A DNA stretch of 64,000 nt from Thermoanaerobaculia bacterium (GTDB lineage: Bacteria > Acidobacteriota > Thermoanaerobaculia > Gp7-AA8). Below are positions 16,022 to 59,764 of the stretch, piece by piece. The notes beneath the pieces are model-generated. The model was not told the DNA's origin and did not search any database. It saw only the letters and a program-made list of their open reading frames with translations. The position numbers and the translations under genes are program-made. Every line of letters begins with the position of its first letter. Positions within the stretch are counted from its first letter, which is position 1. Where the stretch lies: NCBI GenBank assembly GCA_035636095.1, contig DASPZU010000118.1, forward strand, positions 1,316 through 65,315, given 5' to 3'.

Positions 16022-16293
16022 ATGTCGATTACGAAAATCTCGAGCGCGATCTCGTCACCGGACTTTTTCGGGAATCGCTGCGGGAGGAGCTGGTGGCCGG
16101 CTTTCGTCAGATTCAGGCTTCCGGCGAGCGCTTGCCGGCAGCATCGCACTACGCATCGCAGATTGCAGAGATCGTCAGTCGTGGCGCCGACGCGCCGCTG
16201 AAGCCTGATCTCGCCTTCGAGCTGTATCAGGAGATCCTCGACGCCGTGGAGGCTGCGCGAGCGATGGTGTTGGGCGAGGAACGGCCGCAGTAA
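16018..16293 (+). CDS. hypothetical small protein (translationally coupled, ATGA overlap)
   Basis: 91-aa ORF whose start overlaps the upstream stop. No recognisable domain. Confidence 0.4.
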   Translation: MNVDYENLERDLVTGLFRESLREELVAGFRQIQASGERLPAASHYASQIAEIVSRGADAPLKPDLAFELYQEILDAVEAARAMVLGEERPQ

Positions 16294-16368
16294 AGGCAGA
16301 AGGCAGAAAGCAGAAGGCAGAAGTGAGTGCGCGCGACTTCTGCCTTCTGCTTTCTGCCTTCTGCCTTA
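16293..16368. repeat. (AAGGCAG)n long palindromic hairpin element
   Basis: AAGGCAGAAGGCAGAAAGCAGAAGGCAGAAGTGAG-loop-CACTTCTGCCTTCTGCTTTCTGCCTTCTGCCTT. A second copy lies at 59665-59764. Confidence 0.7.
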
Positions 16369-16378
16369 AGATCTCCCC

Positions 16379-17446
16379 GTGAAGCGGAAGATCAAGTCGT
16401 ATCCGCCGCTCTCCTCGTTCGCCACCACCGGCGGTTGAGCCTGCAAGCTGGGTCAGGATGACCTTCACTCCGTGCTGGCGAAACTCCCTTCCACGGAAGG
16501 GCTGGGGGATCTTCTGGTCGGTTACGGCACCAACGACGACGCCGCAGTGCTGCGCATCAACGGCGATCAGGCCATCGCGCAGACTGTCGATTTCTTCACG
16601 CCCATCGTCGACGACCCCTACCTTTTCGGTGCCATAGCGGCTGCCAATTCCGTCTCCGACATCTACGCCATGGGTGCGACACCGATTTTGGGTCTGGCAA
16701 TCGCAGCGTTTCCGACCGACGTACTGCCGCTCGAAGTTCTCGAGCAAATTCTCCGCGGCGGCGCCGACAAAGCGCGCGAAGCGGGATTTCCCGTCGCGGG
16801 CGGGCACACCATCATCGACGACATCCCGAAGTATGGACTGGCAGTCACCGGCGTGGTGTCTGCCGACAAGATCGTCCGCAACTCGACCGCCAGAGCGGGC
16901 GACACTCTCATTCTCACCAAGCCGATCGGCAACGGCATCCTGGTATGCGCCTATCGCGGGTTGAGCAAGCGGACGTTTCGCCGAAGCGAGCCGCCCGATA
17001 TGTCGGAAGCGATCCGCTGGATGACGATGCTGAATCGCGACGCGGCTCGGGTGATGAGCGATGTCGGAGTCAACGCAGCGACTGACATCACCGGCTATGG
17101 TCTGGTCGGACATCTGCTCGAGATGTGTACCGGTTCGAGAGTTGGAGCGGAGATTCACGTTGGGTCTGTGCCGTTGCTCGAAGGAACGCGCGACTACCTC
17201 GCGCGCGGTTTCCGCCCGGAAGGGACGATCCGCAACGCGGAATCATTCAAGTCGCACGTCGGCGTGCAGGTCGACGATTTCGAGTACACATTGATGTGTG
17301 ATGCGCAGACAAGCGGAGGCTTGTTGATATCGGTTCCCGCCCAGAAGCTTGCCGCGATCGAGAAGCGCTTTCGCGAAGGCGGCCTGTTCTATGCAAAGAT
17401 CGGGAAAGTGACGGACCATCCCGGAACCGTGACTTTGCTTCGCTAG
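16379..17446 (+). CDS. selD: selenide, water dikinase (selenophosphate synthetase), selenocysteine-containing; TGA at 16436-16438 read as Sec
   Basis: The downstream portion matches SelD strongly (VDFFTPIVDDPYLFGAIAAANSVSDIYAMGA...). Upstream, in the same frame, GTG(16379)-KRKIKSYPPLSSFATTGG-TGA-ACKLGQDDLHSVL aligns to E. coli SelD [23 protein letters not shown], with the TGA exactly at the catalytic Cys17/Sec position. A small hairpin GGTCA-GGA-TGACC starts 13 nt after the TGA. Confidence 0.8.
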
Positions 17447-17455
17447 GAGACTGCC

Positions 17456-17797
17456 ATGCCCGAAGACCTTCCGTACAACACCTTCCAATCCGATGACGGC
17501 ACGACGTGGATCGAGATTGCCACCGCTCCCAATTCGGACGAGGCGCAATTGATCCAGGGCTTCCTGGAGGCTGAAGACATCGATGCCCAGGTCGAACACG
17601 CCGAGGCCAGCGTTCTCCCCTCAAACATGGGGAGGCTTGGGGATGTGCGGGTGTACGTTCGCGCCGACGATGAAGATCGCGCTCTCCGGCTGCTGCGCCA
17701 GCGTCAGGAGGAGTTCGACAAGCTCGAAGACGACGAGGACACACTGGTGACGGACGAAGGTGTGGCGGAAGTCGACGAGACCGCGGAAAGTGAATGA
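17456..17797 (+). CDS. DUF2007-like small acidic protein
   Basis: 113 aa, highly acidic. N-terminal WIEIATAPNSDEAQLIQGFLEAEDI resembles the DUF2007 fold. Confidence 0.5.
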   Translation: MPEDLPYNTFQSDDGTTWIEIATAPNSDEAQLIQGFLEAEDIDAQVEHAEASVLPSNMGRLGDVRVYVRADDEDRALRLLRQRQEEFDKLEDDEDTLVTDEGVAEVDETAESE

Positions 17798-18366
17798 CGA
17801 CTGAGCCGGAGCCGCCGCGCGAGCGGCATGTTTCCGAACCGGGGCTGCCGGCATGGGTGCCGGCGGTCATCGGCATCGTGCTGGTGGTCATGGCCGGTCT
17901 TGCGGTCTACACCGGCCTGCGATTTCGAAATCCAACTCTGGCGAACGGCATCATCAAGAATCGGCGTCCGCCGCGGATGACCGGTGGCGGGCCGCCCGGT
18001 GAGCCCGAGCCGGGCGCGTCGCTCGTTTTCCCGGAGAATGCACCGACGGCCGGCGGACCGGCTGCTCCTGGCGCGGCCCAATTGTCTGCCCGCCGCGGGA
18101 TGATCACCAGCGTCGTGCCCGAAGACGCGATGGTTTACGTCAACGGCGTCGCCATCGGCGAGGCGCGGCAGTTCAACAATCTCGACAAGGTCTACGACTT
18201 TCCGGCGGAGGGGAGCTACACGGTGCGCATCGTGGCGCCGGGATACCAGGACGCGCAGTTCTTGGTCACGGCCAGCGAGAACGCTCAGCTCGAGATCGCG
18301 CACATCGACGTACGTCTCAGTGCGCCGCGTGCTGCTCCTGCTGCAACTTCTTCGACTCGGCGATGA
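17794..18366 (+). CDS. membrane-anchored PEGA domain protein
   Basis: ATGA overlap with the upstream gene. One TM helix (VPAVIGIVLVVMAGLAVYTGL). C-terminal VYVNGVAIGEA...YTVRIVAPGYQD has a PEGA-like pattern. Confidence 0.55.
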   Translation: MTTEPEPPRERHVSEPGLPAWVPAVIGIVLVVMAGLAVYTGLRFRNPTLANGIIKNRRPPRMTGGGPPGEPEPGASLVFPENAPTAGGPAAPGAAQLSARRGMITSVVPEDAMVYVNGVAIGEARQFNNLDKVYDFPAEGSYTVRIVAPGYQDAQFLVTASENAQLEIAHIDVRLSAPRAAPAATSSTRR

Positions 18367-34828: not shown

Positions 34829-34890
34829 TCACGTTCCAGTCAAGTCACAACCGTCTATGGTGAAGGGCGCCCGAAACGAGCGCCCTTTTC
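34829..34890. repeat. 62-bp direct repeat, right copy (stop codon TAG->CAG; hairpin retained)
   Basis: GTCACGTTCCAGTCAAGTCACAACCGTCTATGGTGAAGGGCGCCCGAAACGAGCGCCCTTTT. Confidence 0.8.
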
Positions 34891-34907
34891 TTGGTGTTCG
34901 CGAGATA

Positions 34908-36551
34908 ATGATGCCCATGCGCAAGTTAGCCACGGGTTGCGCCTTGCTGGTTTTTTCTCTCGCCGCTGCCGGACAACAGATCTCTCCCCTGACCGAACGG
35001 ATCGACGTTACCGTCATCAACGTCGACGTCACCGTGACCGACCGTGCCGGCAATCCAGTGGCCGGTCTGACGCGCGACGATTTCGAGATCTTCGAGGACG
35101 GGCGCCCGCAGAAGATCACGAACTTTTACATCATCCAGAACGCTGCCGTGCGAAGTGGCGCGGCGGCCGAAAGCGCTTCAGATTCGCCGCAGTTCCGGCG
35201 AAAAGTCGTCCTGATGATCGACAACAACTTCATCCTGAAGCCGCAGCGCGACCTGGCCTTGAAAAAAATCGATGACTTTTTCGATAAGCATTTCGATGGC
35301 AACTACGAATGGTCCGTGATTACGGTGGGGCACAACGTCGAATCCATTCAGCCCTTCACGACCGACCGGACCAAGATTCATGCGGCGATCGACCACGTTC
35401 GCCAGATGGAAACGTTCACGCTGCAGCCGGAGATGAATCGCGCGCTGTTGTCCGATAGCACCCGCAAGGCCACCATGGGCGATGCCGCCAGTGGCTTCGC
35501 TTATTCGAATTCGGTGAACTTTCACAGCCGCGAGCAGACCATGCGGATGCTCCAGGCCACCACCAACACCGCCCGCGCAGTCATTCAGATGTGCAGGGCC
35601 TTCGGCTCAGCGGGCGGCAAGAAAATCGTCATCCTGGTGACCGGCGGCATGGAGCGAAACACCTCATTCCAGGCCTATGAAACCGGCGAGGATCGCATCC
35701 TTCAGCAGATGAAGTTCGATGCCAGCCTCACGCTCGATGAAATGGTCCATGAAGCGAATGCCGCGAACTTCAACCTCTACGTCGTGAAAGCCAGCGGCCG
35801 CGGAATGATCGCCCCCCAGCACGACGTCTCGAACAAATCGTCCGGGCTCAACCTCTACTCCACGAACATTTTCCAGCAGGGCGGCGGCGCCGGACCGATC
35901 GACACCAGCGACGTCGATTCGACTTCACTGACCCTGGCCCTCGGCACGGGCGGCCTGTATCTCACCGGCACCGAGACCGGCCGGAACTTCGAGCGGATCG
36001 ATACCGACACCTCGAATTACTACTCCCTCGGTTATTCGCCGCAACATCCCGAGGATGGCGATTACCACCGGATCACGGTGAAAGCGAAAAAGGCCGGCCT
36101 CAAGATCCGGCACCGCGAGGGCTACGCCAGTCTTTCCTTTGAACAACGACTGGAGCAGACGCTGATCGCGCCGCTGACTTTCCAGTCAGAACGCGGCTCG
36201 CTTCCGGTCACGGTTGAGGTCGGAGTTCCGGCCGATGCGGATCATGTCCGTGTTCCGGTTGTGGCGCATCTGCCGATGACTCGGATCACAGTTCTGCCAT
36301 TGGGCGACGCGTACGTTGGCCGCGTCCACGTCTATCTGTCCGTTTATGACAGCAGCGGAAAGAACGTGGGGTACCACCATCTGATCAAGGATGTGACTGT
36401 GCCGAAGGCTGAGCTCTCGAAACTCGGCAATGCGCAGTTTCAATACAAGATGAATGTCGCGTTAGCGAAGGGTGAATTTACGCTGGTGGTCACGCTTCGT
36501 GACGATGTCACGAATGATATCGGCACCGCTCTTGAAAACGTGCGGCTATAG
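34908..36551 (+). CDS. VWFA-related Acidobacterial-domain protein (TIGR03436-like), tandem paralog 1
   Basis: Signal peptide. Conserved N-terminal block ERIDVTVINVDVTVTDRAGNPVAGLTRDDFEIFEDGRPQKITNFY, then a VWA-like region. 547 aa. Confidence 0.75.
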   Translation: MMPMRKLATGCALLVFSLAAAGQQISPLTERIDVTVINVDVTVTDRAGNPVAGLTRDDFEIFEDGRPQKITNFYIIQNAAVRSGAAAESASDSPQFRRKVVLMIDNNFILKPQRDLALKKIDDFFDKHFDGNYEWSVITVGHNVESIQPFTTDRTKIHAAIDHVRQMETFTLQPEMNRALLSDSTRKATMGDAASGFAYSNSVNFHSREQTMRMLQATTNTARAVIQMCRAFGSAGGKKIVILVTGGMERNTSFQAYETGEDRILQQMKFDASLTLDEMVHEANAANFNLYVVKASGRGMIAPQHDVSNKSSGLNLYSTNIFQQGGGAGPIDTSDVDSTSLTLALGTGGLYLTGTETGRNFERIDTDTSNYYSLGYSPQHPEDGDYHRITVKAKKAGLKIRHREGYASLSFEQRLEQTLIAPLTFQSERGSLPVTVEVGVPADADHVRVPVVAHLPMTRITVLPLGDAYVGRVHVYLSVYDSSGKNVGYHHLIKDVTVPKAELSKLGNAQFQYKMNVALAKGEFTLVVTLRDDVTNDIGTALENVRL

Positions 36552-36567
36552 CCGGAGGAGACCTTTC

Positions 36568-38034
36568 ATGCGCGCCATTTCCTTCGCGTTGCTGCTCGGT
36601 GCAATGCCGCTCCTGGCCCAGCAACCCATGCCGCTCACGGAAAAGATCGACGTTTCGGCCGTGAACGTCGATGTGACCGTGTTAGACCGCCAACGCAATC
36701 CGGTTCGTGGCCTTACCGCTGCCGATTTCGAAGTCTTCGAGGATGGTGTCGCTCAGAGAATCACGAACTTCTACGCTGTCGAGAACGGCGGCATCGCGCG
36801 CACCACTGCCGTCGAACCGGACGCCGAGCGTTTCCGGCGCAAAGTGCTCGTCATTGTCGACAACACGGCTCTGTGCGCCAAGCCGCGCCGCAATCTTCTG
36901 CTGAACAAACTGGAATCGTTCATCGATCAGCACTTCTCGGGAGACTACGAGTGGGCGATCGTTCCTCTGGGAGGACCCCAGTCGCCGGGCGCTCTTCCTT
37001 TCACTCAGGACAAGGAAACAATCCACAACGCCATCGAGGCCCTACGTCGGGATGAAGCTTTGCCGCGCGACATGGACTTCGGGGAGATCTCCCGGACCAC
37101 GCAATCCGCGTGCAGGATTTTGCAGGAACAATCGTTTCTTTCGCAGCTTCTCAATAAACAGGTGCGGATGAAGGGAGCTGCTATCTCGGCAGCGGTCGAG
37201 GAAATGTGCGACGGATTGGCGGCCGCCCCGGGGAAAAAAGTCATTCTGCTGGTCACGGATGCCATTCCCAGCGGCAGTTTTCGCGCCGACCTTCCTGACG
37301 ATGCGATTCTGATTCAAAAAATGCATGAAGCAGTCGTCCGCAGCGCAAACGCTGCCAATGTCAACGTGTTCGTGATGAATACGGAAGGGCTGACCGACGG
37401 GGGGACGCCGGGAAGGCCCTTCACGTTGGCGGCCGATGAATCGGGAGGTTTCTGGCTTGCCACTGAAACCGGCGGAAGGTACTTGCACAGCAGTTCGTTT
37501 TCGGAATCGCTGCAGACTTTCGAGAACGCGACGGCAAACTTCTACTCGCTGGGCTACATCATGCGACACGCCGAAGATGCGAAATACCATCGGATCTCGG
37601 TCAGGCTGAAAGGGCCGGGATCGTACGCGCTCAGCTATCGCCTCGGTTTCTCGAGCCGCTCGACGGAGCAACAACTCGAGCGCGCGCTTCGGACGCCGCT
37701 CGGAATCGCGACGCAGCGCTCAACGCTTCCCCTCACCATGGAGGTTGGCGCGCCATCACAAGTCGGAGCGAAAGTGGTTGTGGCCTTGACCGCGATGTTA
37801 CCGGCGGAGCGGGTGCAGGCGGGCCGGCTGGATCTTTATGTCACGGTTTTCGATCAAACCGGACGGAAACTCGGCTTCCATCACTTCAGGCGCGACATCG
37901 AGACGATCGAAACGCCGCAGTTGGTGCTGACCACGCGCCTTACGTTTCCGCACGGCAGCTACCGACTCGTGATGACTCTCCGGGACGAAGAGACGAACGA
38001 AATCGGGATTGCGTCAAGCGATGCCACGTTCTAA
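36568..38034 (+). CDS. VWFA-related Acidobacterial-domain protein, tandem paralog 2
   Basis: GGAGGAG RBS. EKIDVSAVNVDVTVLDRQRNPVRGLTAADFEVFEDGVAQRITNFY. 488 aa. Confidence 0.75.
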   Translation: MRAISFALLLGAMPLLAQQPMPLTEKIDVSAVNVDVTVLDRQRNPVRGLTAADFEVFEDGVAQRITNFYAVENGGIARTTAVEPDAERFRRKVLVIVDNTALCAKPRRNLLLNKLESFIDQHFSGDYEWAIVPLGGPQSPGALPFTQDKETIHNAIEALRRDEALPRDMDFGEISRTTQSACRILQEQSFLSQLLNKQVRMKGAAISAAVEEMCDGLAAAPGKKVILLVTDAIPSGSFRADLPDDAILIQKMHEAVVRSANAANVNVFVMNTEGLTDGGTPGRPFTLAADESGGFWLATETGGRYLHSSSFSESLQTFENATANFYSLGYIMRHAEDAKYHRISVRLKGPGSYALSYRLGFSSRSTEQQLERALRTPLGIATQRSTLPLTMEVGAPSQVGAKVVVALTAMLPAERVQAGRLDLYVTVFDQTGRKLGFHHFRRDIETIETPQLVLTTRLTFPHGSYRLVMTLRDEETNEIGIASSDATF

Positions 38035-39661
38035 CGTCATGTCGGGCTTTGTCGTGGGCGTTCTGGCGACAGCAGCTCTTGTCTCAGCACAGCTCCCGCT
38101 CGTCGAACGCGTCAATGTCTCTGTAGTCAACGTCGACGTAAGCGTATTCGACCGTTCGGGACGGCCGGTCACCAAGTTGCGCCGAGACGATTTTCAGATC
38201 TTCGAGGACGGAAAGCCGCAGAAGATCACCAACTTCTATATCGTCGAGCATTCTGTTCCACGAGCTGAAACGACGCAACAGGAACAAACGCACGGTTCGG
38301 AAAGCCGTTTTCGCCGCAAAGCGATTCTGCTCGTCGACAACATTTTCATCGAGAAGCCGCGTCGGGATGCAGCGCTGGCGACGGTGCAGAAGTTCATGGA
38401 GGGCCGTTTCGCCGGCGATTACGAATGGTCGGTAGGCACGATCGGTAGCGGCATTCACACGATTCTTCCGTTCACGAGTGACAAGACGAAGATTGCCGCG
38501 GCAATCGATCTCGTGCGCCGTGGTGGAACGCTTCCAAAGCGTGATGCTGTAGACCTTGGCATGCTGGCCGACGAAACCGCGCTGCGTGCCGTTCGGGGAG
38601 CACGTGAAAGCGAGCAGACGCGGACGGACCTTGCAAGAAGCATCAGCGCTAACGAAGGCCTGGCAGCTTTGTCTGAACTCGCGAAAGAAGTGATCGACGC
38701 TTGTCGTGGATACAGCAGCGCAGATGGTAAGAAACTCATCGTCTTGGTCACGGGTGCGATTGAAATCGACAACCGTCGTCCAACGATCGACGATGCGGTC
38801 AATCAACCGGCATGGAAGCTTCAGCCGCGTGAGAACCGCAGCGAAACCGGCCGAATCCTCGAAGCGATGGTGCGAGAGGCCAACACTGCGAATTTCAATG
38901 TGTACGTCTTGAACGCCTCGGGAGTTGTCAATCCGGTCCCTAGCGACGTCTCCAACCATGCGTCGGAGTATGTGGCTCAAGGAGGGTTCAATTCACCGCA
39001 CACCGAACGCGATTTCGACTCTTTTCCGCTGTCGCTCGCTATGCAAACGGGCGGAGCATATCTGCCCAGCAACGATCTCGGCGCGTCCTTGCGCCAGGTC
39101 GATGAGGAAAGCTCGACTTATTACTCGCTCGGTTATAGCCCGCCGCATTTCGAAGACGGCAAGTACCATTCGATCGAAGTCCGCGTGACAGGTTCCGCGA
39201 TGACGGTTCGCCATCGGATGGGCTACGCCGATCTCTCGGCCGAGCAAAGAGTCGAGGACGCGATGCGTGTAGCCGTCGCTCCCACCGCCCTCCCGCATCA
39301 GATTCCGGTTCAAATCGAGATCGGGAAATCACGCCAAGAGAACCACAAGATGCATCTGCCTGTGACGCTGATCGCACCAATGAGAAGCGTCGCGCTGTTG
39401 CCGCGCGACGGCCTGAGCGTTGGTCGCGTCCATATCTACCTCTCGGTGTTCGATCAGGCTGGAATCAATATCGGGTTCGATCACCGCACCCAGGACTTGG
39501 CGTTGACGCCGGAGCAATTGCAAAAAGTGACTGAGCTCAACAGCAACTTCCGATATTTCCTGAGCGTAGCCCTCAAACCGGGAAAGTATCGCGTCGTGGT
39601 CGCTCTTCGCGATGACGTCAGCAGCGAGATCGGTATCACTGCTGCGGATGTTCAGGTCTAA
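38021..39661 (+). CDS. VWFA-related Acidobacterial-domain protein, tandem paralog 3
   Basis: ERVNVSVVNVDVSVFDRSGRPVTKLRRDDFQIFEDGKPQKITNFY. The start is ambiguous between ATG 38021 and ATG 38039. Confidence 0.7.
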   Translation: MPRSNVMSGFVVGVLATAALVSAQLPLVERVNVSVVNVDVSVFDRSGRPVTKLRRDDFQIFEDGKPQKITNFYIVEHSVPRAETTQQEQTHGSESRFRRKAILLVDNIFIEKPRRDAALATVQKFMEGRFAGDYEWSVGTIGSGIHTILPFTSDKTKIAAAIDLVRRGGTLPKRDAVDLGMLADETALRAVRGARESEQTRTDLARSISANEGLAALSELAKEVIDACRGYSSADGKKLIVLVTGAIEIDNRRPTIDDAVNQPAWKLQPRENRSETGRILEAMVREANTANFNVYVLNASGVVNPVPSDVSNHASEYVAQGGFNSPHTERDFDSFPLSLAMQTGGAYLPSNDLGASLRQVDEESSTYYSLGYSPPHFEDGKYHSIEVRVTGSAMTVRHRMGYADLSAEQRVEDAMRVAVAPTALPHQIPVQIEIGKSRQENHKMHLPVTLIAPMRSVALLPRDGLSVGRVHIYLSVFDQAGINIGFDHRTQDLALTPEQLQKVTELNSNFRYFLSVALKPGKYRVVVALRDDVSSEIGITAADVQV

Positions 39662-52945: not shown

Positions 52946-53033
52946 TGAAATTTCAAATTTCGAATTTCAAATGAAAAATTCTGAATGCGGCCAATTTTCA
53001 ATTCTTCATTTGAAATTTGAAATTCTTAATTTC
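52946..53033. repeat. AT-rich imperfect palindrome (GAAATTTCAAATTTCGAATTTCAAATGAAAAATT ... mirror), same family as 1481-1568
   Basis: Near-identical arms to the 1481 element. Produces spurious ORFs in both orientations (MTEISNFEFQMKN...). Confidence 0.7.
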
Positions 53034-53096
53034 AAAAAAAAGGAGCGCTCACACAGCACCGTAGATCCCTCGCTTCGCTCGGGATAAACTCCAAAA

Positions 53097-58877: not shown

Positions 58878-59664
58878 CGAAGACATCATCATCGCCGACG
58901 AAGAAGCGTTGCGAAACGCGATCGCCGAGAACGACACCAACATCGATCGCGAAGTGCGCCGCCTTTCGCGGCGCGGCTTCATCGTCGCCGGCGCCGCCAC
59001 CCTCGCCGCCTACGGCGCGTGGAAGTTTCTGCGGCTGGCCTCGCGTGAGGGCGATGTGCCCTGGCCGCTGCGCCGCGGACTCGAGACCAACGAGAAGTTG
59101 TCGGAGGCATACTTCAGGACTGCGCGCCTGAGTCGCACCTTCCCACCGTCGGCGATCACAAACGCGCGGATCAATGGGGGAGTCGGCCTTCAGCCGAATT
59201 ACGATCCCGAGAACTGGCGCTTGCGCGTGGAAGGAATCGCGGGACAGCCGCCCGCGACGCTCACGCTCTCCGACCTCAAGTCATTTCCTCGGCGCGACAT
59301 GACCACAGAGCTCCGCTGCATCGAAGGCTGGAGCATCGTCGTGCATTGGACCGGCACCCGACTCGCGGATCTGATGGCCCGATTCTCGCCACCGCGCGGA
59401 ACGCGATACGTCGCCATGGAATCACCCGGCCGCGGGTACTACGTCGGGCTCGACATGCTGAGCGCAATGCATCCGCAAACACTTCTGGCGTACGAGCTCA
59501 ACGGCGCACCGCTGACCTGGCAGCATGGTGCGCCACTGCGTCTGGCCGTTCCAGTGAAGTACGGCTACAAGAACATCAAGCGCATCGCGACCATCCGCTA
59601 CACCGATGTCCGGCCCGCCGATTTCTGGGGCGAGCGCGGATACGACTGGTACGCGGGACACTAA
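58870..59664 (+). CDS. molybdopterin-dependent oxidoreductase (sulfite-oxidase fold, MsrP/YedY-like), Tat-exported
   Basis: Tat motif SRRGFIVAGAA. ELRCIEGWSIVVHWTGTRL and KYGYKNIKRI match the oxidoreductase molybdopterin-binding domain. Confidence 0.75.
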   Translation: MSDEDIIIADEEALRNAIAENDTNIDREVRRLSRRGFIVAGAATLAAYGAWKFLRLASREGDVPWPLRRGLETNEKLSEAYFRTARLSRTFPPSAITNARINGGVGLQPNYDPENWRLRVEGIAGQPPATLTLSDLKSFPRRDMTTELRCIEGWSIVVHWTGTRLADLMARFSPPRGTRYVAMESPGRGYYVGLDMLSAMHPQTLLAYELNGAPLTWQHGAPLRLAVPVKYGYKNIKRIATIRYTDVRPADFWGERGYDWYAGH

Positions 59665-59764
59665 AAGGCAGAAGGCAGAAGGCAGAAGGCAGAAGGCAGA
59701 AGGATGAGGGAAGGATTGACTAATCCGACTCACTTCTGCCTTCTGCTTTCTGACTTCTGCCTTT
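59665..59764. repeat. (AAGGCAG)n long palindromic hairpin element, copy 2
   Basis: (AAGGCAG)x5 ... CACTTCTGCCTTCTGCTTTCTGACTTCTGCCTT. Placed between convergent genes as a bidirectional terminator. Confidence 0.7.

Follow-up and report, generated by a model that had tools for sequence, protein, structure and literature searches.

A class-conserved in-frame TGA in selD of Thermoanaerobaculia as a probable selenocysteine codon with a candidate SECIS hairpin

The selD gene of this Thermoanaerobaculia bacterium poses a question of decoding: does the TGA that lies in frame upstream of its apparent start end translation, or is it read as selenocysteine (Sec) within a longer protein? From comparative sequence analysis we conclude that the UGA almost certainly encodes selenocysteine, its decoding being assisted by a small conserved RNA hairpin. 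We put a probability of about 0.9 on the reading that positions 16379-17446 of the window (the whole 64,000-nucleotide stretch of DNA that was analysed) encode a Sec-containing selenophosphate synthetase (selenide, water dikinase), its Sec being inserted via a candidate SECIS. Among bacterial selenoproteins, FdhA and SelD have the widest distribution, SelD coming second, and 38 Sec-SelD sequences had been counted by 2006 (PMC1794560). Because SelD ranks so high on that list, the gene described here is an ordinary case of a well-known Sec-SelD gene type. Its features are listed in Table 1.

Table 1. Features of the selD locus, in window coordinates
Feature	Position	Strand	Basis or remark
Full selD CDS	16379..17446	+	Translation with TGA read through; Sec would be residue 20
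Proposed true start GTG	16379..16381	+	Conservation boundary and GTG/ATG in relatives
In-frame TGA, proposed Sec codon	16436..16438	+	Position of E. coli SelD Cys17
Eight codons with almost no synonymous variation, +2 to +9 after UGA	16442..16465	+	RNA-level constraint
AAG, catalytic Lys (E. coli Lys20 equivalent)	16445..16447	+	5' of both public start calls
Candidate SECIS hairpin GGGUCA-GGA-UGACCU	16450..16464	+	RNAfold, RNAalifold, synonymous constraint
Shortened ORF as publicly called, 324 aa, without Gly-rich catalytic loop	16472..17446	+	Six-frame ORF list
DUF2007 protein gene	17456-17797	+	Pfam; 9-nt gap after selD
PEGA-domain protein gene	17794-18366	+	Pfam; 4-nt overlap with DUF2007 gene

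The selD reading frame and its in-frame TGA

Direct translation gives a frame that opens at GTG 16379-16381, runs through the TGA at 16436-16438 and closes at TAG 17444-17446, for a total of 356 codons and 355 amino acids. Nineteen sense codons precede the TGA and encode V/M-KRKIKSYPPLSSFATTGG, where KRKIKSYPPLSSFATTGG is the stretch after the initiator. The TGA is followed by ACKLGQDDLHSVLAKLPSTEGL, and the frame then stays open up to the TAG that ends at 17446. With U written as C, the 355-residue product scores 375.4 bits on the NCBIfam equivalog model for selD (TIGR00476, curated cutoff 125 bits) and covers profile positions 2-309 of 311. The 324-residue ORF alone scores 345 bits and matches positions 36-309. 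Since the profile match moves from 36 to 2, the 31 residues 5' of the apparent start belong to the SelD domain. AIRS and AIRS_C domains (PF00586, PF02769) were found on the public selD gene call.

The peptide around the TGA reads LSSFATTGG-U-ACKLGQDDL. When the product was aligned with E. coli SelD (3u0o) by phmmer (E = 6e-68), the TGA fell on Cys17 and the AAG that follows it fell on Lys20. GG-U-ACK lies opposite AG-C-GCK, and the loop that carries Cys/Sec and Lys is present only if the UGA is read through. Alignment with the Aquifex protein (2yye) agrees, giving the TGA and the Lys the same places. The original prediction had assigned the TGA to the catalytic Cys/Sec position from the window sequence alone, and alignment to SelD orthologs bears it out, in the profile score, in the placing opposite Cys17 and in the relatives described below. 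It had also taken the first codon of the six-frame ORF, at 16472, for an ATG; that codon is a GTG.

As had been foreseen, gene callers shorten selD. The identical gene is called as 324 amino acids from GTG 16472 in GCA_009772495.1 (WNFA01000072.1) and in ENA and JGI soil assemblies, and a near-identical entry, HYS56265.1 ('selenide, water dikinase SelD [Thermoanaerobaculia bacterium]'), has 332 amino acids and starts at the CTG directly after ACK. Neither the 324-residue nor the 332-residue version includes the Sec and the Lys. Frequent mis-annotation of Sec-SelD has already been noted (PMC13326102). The public records of this selD and its relatives lack the catalytic loop with Sec and Lys, and they should be given a transl_except qualifier for Sec.

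One scan of species-representative genomes supplied a comparison set of 80 loci, 29 of them close and 51 more distant. The 29 closest (L001-L029) come from MAGs of Thermoanaerobaculia or unclassified Acidobacteriota, with SelD proteins at 64-75% amino acid identity. Every one of these relatives has TGA at the same codon (29/29, or 30/30 counting the window sequence), and both flanks of the TGA are kept as well, with SSFATTGG before it and ACKLGQ[DS]DL after it. Upstream of the aligned GTG or ATG start, similarity among the 29 is lost and stop codons appear. The start aligned with 16379 is GTG in most relatives and ATG in L025, L027 and L028; it lies one codon further upstream in L005, L006, L009, L014 and L016 (GTG) and in L021 (ATG). 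We place the start of selD at GTG 16379 on the basis of this conservation boundary and the GTG or ATG codons of the 29 relatives.

The codons upstream of the TGA carry the mark of translation. Across the 30 sequences, the 12 codons that precede the TGA show little or no amino acid change, and their third positions vary by 0.85-1.5 bits, apart from the Phe codon with its 0.21 bits. The two Gly codons directly 5' of the UGA are written with three and four different codons. Amino acids kept while third positions vary are the pattern of purifying selection, and we conclude that the frame 5' of the TGA is translated. This codon pattern, together with the end of homology at the GTG or ATG, upholds the proposal that the upstream frame from GTG 16379 is coding. 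The Lys codon is AAG in 29 of the 30 Thermoanaerobaculia sequences and AAA in one.

Among the 51 loci of other phyla, the same codon is TGA in 30 and Cys (TGC or TGT) in 21. Taken together, the catalytic codon is TGA in 59 related loci and Cys in 21. Such a Sec/Cys pair at one codon is what typically marks a selenoprotein family. UGA is also the commonest stop codon in the window, where it ends 27 of 51 predicted genes. Since it is an ordinary stop elsewhere, recoding in selD would be specific to this site and not a change of the genetic code.

A candidate SECIS hairpin

The hairpin downstream of the TGA consists of a closing G16450.U16464 pair and five Watson-Crick pairs (16451-16455 with 16459-16463) around the loop GGA (16456-16458). 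It begins 11 nt after the UGA and spans nt 15-29 when counted from the U of UGA. RNAalifold, run on the 30 Thermoanaerobaculia sequences, recovered one consensus hairpin, at columns 15-29, with no extended lower stem conserved. The original prediction had drawn a shorter hairpin, GGUCA-GGA-UGACC (16451-16463), 13 nt downstream. The first base of that stem is indeed the 13th nucleotide after the TGA; once the closing G16450.U16464 pair is included, the spacing becomes 11 nt.

Synonymous variation collapses over this element. Codons +2 to +9 vary by 0.19 bits, compared with a gene median of 1.02, and this is the minimum of 152 eight-codon windows. The six lowest of those 152 windows in the whole-gene codon alignment all overlap 16442-16465. 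Within these eight codons, GGT is used in 30/30 sequences, CAG in 30/30, GAT in 29/29, GAC in 30/30 and CTG in 27/30. Compensatory changes were seen in L025, where G15.U29 is replaced by A-U and U14.G30 by U-A, and the loop is GUC; the hairpin core is otherwise invariant across the 30 species. Pair 20-24 covaries across phyla (C-G in 12 sequences, A-U in 7), in a comparison that involves register shifts of 0-2 nt. Because the stem is invariant within the class, covariation support comes from L025 and the cross-phylum comparison only.

Folding energy over the hairpin is -8.7 kcal/mol in the class, -6.1 in other Sec-type genes and -2.2 in Cys-type genes, with part of the Cys-type gap following from the lower G+C of the Cys set (0.44 vs 0.57). 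The hairpin is thermodynamically unexceptional, at -6.2 kcal/mol in the window with a z-score of -0.39 against shuffles for the 65-nt fold, and neither 65-nt nor 121-nt folds around the UGA were better than shuffled sequences. The determinants of E. coli-type SelB recognition are absent from it: there is no bulged U, and there is no G-U in the loop (GGA). Such determinants vary between bacteria (PMC12013277). In BSepDB, GGGUCC-GGC-GGACC at the same offset is the canonical SECIS of Acetomicrobium mobile SelD (PMC13326102), and the minimal SECIS of E. coli is a 17-nt stem-loop that spans nt 15-31 and lies 11 nt from the UGA (PMC8659212). The window hairpin has the corresponding features, being a stem-loop in the ORF directly 3' of the UGA, with a spacing of about 11 nt and with selection on the RNA. 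Its reading as a candidate SECIS, which had been put forward from the window sequence, is supported by the synonymous collapse exactly at this place, the compensatory changes, the 11-nt spacing and the BSepDB equivalent. As a compact, well-constrained SECIS example, the conserved hairpin could help to refine bacterial SECIS models.

We propose the following mechanism. Translation would start at GTG 16379 and would not terminate at UGA 16436, with the 15-nt hairpin at 16450-16464 serving as a bacterial SECIS. The hairpin would recruit SelB.GTP.Sec-tRNA(Sec), and Sec would be inserted into the Gly-rich N-terminal loop GG-U-ACK, which carries the catalytic Sec/Cys and Lys.

Further hairpins were considered. 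One at nt 52-65 (CCUUC/GAAGG) found no support: U54-to-C changes are uncompensated, and the pairing follows from the P-S-x-E-G codons. Another is found in the 30 Sec-type selD loci of other phyla (among L030-L080), at nt 30-46, with 7 bp and the loop G-U-N. Covariation in this second hairpin, which comes immediately behind the first, is strong: both partners have changed in 6 of the 7 pairs, and pairing is kept in 80% of cells. It is formed in none of the 30 Thermoanaerobaculia sequences, nor in the Cys-type genes. The mean MFE of nt 28-50 is -1.8 kcal/mol in Thermoanaerobaculia vs -8.2 in the Sec-type genes of other phyla, and G37 is an A in 14 of the 30 class sequences. The first hairpin is the sole SECIS candidate in Thermoanaerobaculia. 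A bolder suggestion is that the class uses a reduced SECIS, a single class-frozen 15-nt hairpin ending in a GGA triloop and lacking both a bulged U and a G-U dinucleotide, the second hairpin having been lost or never possessed. We regard this as speculative and on balance unlikely. If true, a reduced single-hairpin SECIS would mean a lineage-specific mode of SelB-RNA recognition, and one would then have to ask which hairpin serves as the SelB site in other phyla, the first or the second.

Gene neighbourhood and selenocysteine machinery

The selD gene is followed closely by the DUF2007 and PEGA-domain genes (Table 1), and all three occur in this order in 28 of 29 relatives; in the remaining one (L018), the contig ends after DUF2007. 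The three genes probably form one operon and would then be co-transcribed. Reading towards selD from the 5' side, the order is LepA, two ORFs without a Pfam match, a STAS and a HATPase-domain gene (both on the minus strand), a DUF8575 gene and a 91-aa ORF. On the 3' side, PEGA is followed by EF-G (minus strand) and a Ser/Thr kinase. The DUF8575 gene and the 91-aa ORF lie 5' of selD in most relatives as well. We know of no selenium link for DUF2007, PEGA, DUF8575 or the 91-aa ORF. Pfam annotation revealed no other selenium-related gene in the window, which consists of housekeeping DNA.

A long intergenic palindrome lies directly 5' of selD, at 16293-16367. It has 32-nt arms that are 100% complementary and an 11-nt spacer, and no T-run comes after it. 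Like another at 59664-59764, it has arms made of tandem 7-nt units, (GAAGGCA)n. These palindromes gave only spurious miRNA-like matches in Rfam and may represent a family of repeats or terminators of an unusual kind. A second intergenic palindrome family, at 1481-1564 and 52946-53034, is AT-rich (AATTTCAAATTTCAAATGAAAAATT...) in a window of 60.5% G+C, with 35-40-nt arms that are 86-88% complementary. Elsewhere, positions 1-793 hold the 3' part of prfA (release factor 1), with 377.9 bits on NF001859 and 369 bits on TIGR00019; both scores fall short of the full-length cutoffs, since the window start truncates the gene, and the adjoining contig sequence has rpmE-DUF1385-prfA upstream of the window. 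Three consecutive ORFs of 564, 520 and 550 aa at 34857-39661 score well in coding statistics but match no Pfam family at E<=1e-5, and are flanked by TonB-dependent-receptor-like outer-membrane genes.

Neither ARAGORN nor Rfam (at gathering and at E<=1) detected a tRNA-Sec in the window, and ARAGORN detected none in the flanks of the 29 relatives. A 96-nt 'tRNA-Ala (ggc)' that ARAGORN reported at L002:17981-18076 is GC-rich and coding-like and is probably a false positive. In tblastn searches of the window and the 80 loci with E. coli SelA and SelB, there was nothing real near selD in the window or in the class relatives, and the SelB matches proved to be LepA and EF-G. No selA, selB or tRNA-Sec was found in the 10 kb beyond either window end. 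Absence of the Sec machinery from the ~84 kb examined is expected for such a share of a multi-megabase genome. In the flanks examined, no other sel gene accompanies selD in Thermoanaerobaculia. Among the 80 loci, selA adjoins selD in no more than three distant ones, where it is upstream of a Sec-type selD: L061:2683-4005 (Chloroflexota), L064:8536-9876 (Bacillales) and L069:8758-9876 (Bacillota). A SelA profile search of a 5.8-billion-protein collection gave 120 listed matches, all from Enterobacteria. When the window was scanned for in-frame TGA codons flanked 5' and 3' by coding signal, no second selenoprotein gene came to light; the other candidates were ordinary neighbouring genes in the same frame.

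Use of Sec is known in the phylum, Occallatibacter riparius having three selenoprotein genes (PMC12013277). A literature search found no paper linking Thermoanaerobaculia to selenocysteine. It is difficult to account for a class-wide TGA and hairpin unless a Sec system is at work, and we infer that selA, selB and selC lie elsewhere in the genome. Synthesis of SelD may also be subject to selenium-dependent feedback.

Alternative readings and comparison with known systems

Three other accounts of the TGA were weighed. It might be read without a Sec system, through near-cognate insertion of Trp or Cys or through a lineage-wide reassignment of UGA. In its favour, the ~84 kb examined of this genome held no Sec machinery, and other systems are known in which Sec UGA codons are read through at a low level by non-Sec means when selenium is limiting. 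Reassignment is contradicted by the 27 of 51 predicted window genes that end in UGA. Trp would not be functional at a catalytic Cys/Sec site, a strongly selected SECIS-type hairpin lies at the canonical distance, and the phylum has documented Sec use (O. riparius, PMC12013277). We consider this account very unlikely. Less likely still is that the TGA is a true stop, with SelD starting at GTG 16472 or CTG 16448 and the 19 upstream codons forming a leader or small ORF. The public calls of 324 and 332 amino acids imply as much, the shortened ORF keeps its 345 bits on the selD model, and the ~84 kb yielded no Sec machinery. The short product would, however, lack the first 35 profile positions, which hold the loop with Sec/Cys17 and Lys20. 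In E. coli, C17S and K20 mutants of SelD are inactive. Termination at the TGA also sits badly with in-frame, protein-level purifying selection on 12 upstream codons, with a TGA and a peptide on both sides of it that are kept in 30/30 species, and with homologues in other phyla that have Cys at exactly this codon.

The remaining account, that selD is a decaying pseudogene in which a Cys codon has mutated to TGA, needs just one TGC-to-TGA change. It is scarcely credible for a TGA shared by 30 species whose SelD proteins differ by 25-36%, in a gene with no further stops or frameshifts and with strong amino-acid conservation and normal synonymous change along its whole length.

We thus favour selenocysteine insertion at the UGA of selD. 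A Sec-containing SelD would imply a full Sec-decoding trait and selenium dependence in the soil class Thermoanaerobaculia, and would add a class-level lineage to the known distribution of Sec-SelD. Current understanding of selenoprotein synthesis is unchanged by this finding.

Known Sec-type SelD proteins include those of Haemophilus influenzae, Aquifex aeolicus (PDB 2ZOD/2YYE, solved as Sec-to-Cys variants) and Acetomicrobium mobile. The window gene has in common with this group a PurM-like AIRS/AIRS_C fold and a Gly-rich loop of the form G-U-[AG]-[CSA]-K, in which Sec occupies the place of E. coli Cys17 and the Lys is conserved, as well as a hairpin about 11-12 nt after the UGA inside the CDS. 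It differs from other Sec-type SelD genes in belonging to an Acidobacteriota lineage, in its stem GGUCA/UGACC with the loop GGA and in having no second hairpin at nt 30-46. The predicted protein can be aligned end to end with E. coli SelD (3U0O), and Lys20 is kept, as are the Asp/Asn residues in the motifs DDAAV, TxDFFxP, NxxSD and TDxTGxGL. Unlike the window selD, the E. coli gene encodes Cys17 and hence has neither a UGA nor a SECIS at this place.

The candidate SECIS can also be compared with that of E. coli fdhF. In both cases the stem-loop follows the UGA directly within the ORF, begins at nt 15 (11-nt spacing) and carries a G-rich apical loop some 20 nt away from the UGA. The fdhF element is 17 nt long, with a bulged U17 and the loop GGUC, which contains G23/U24, whereas the window hairpin measures only 15 nt (6 pairs), lacks a bulged U and ends in the loop GGA.
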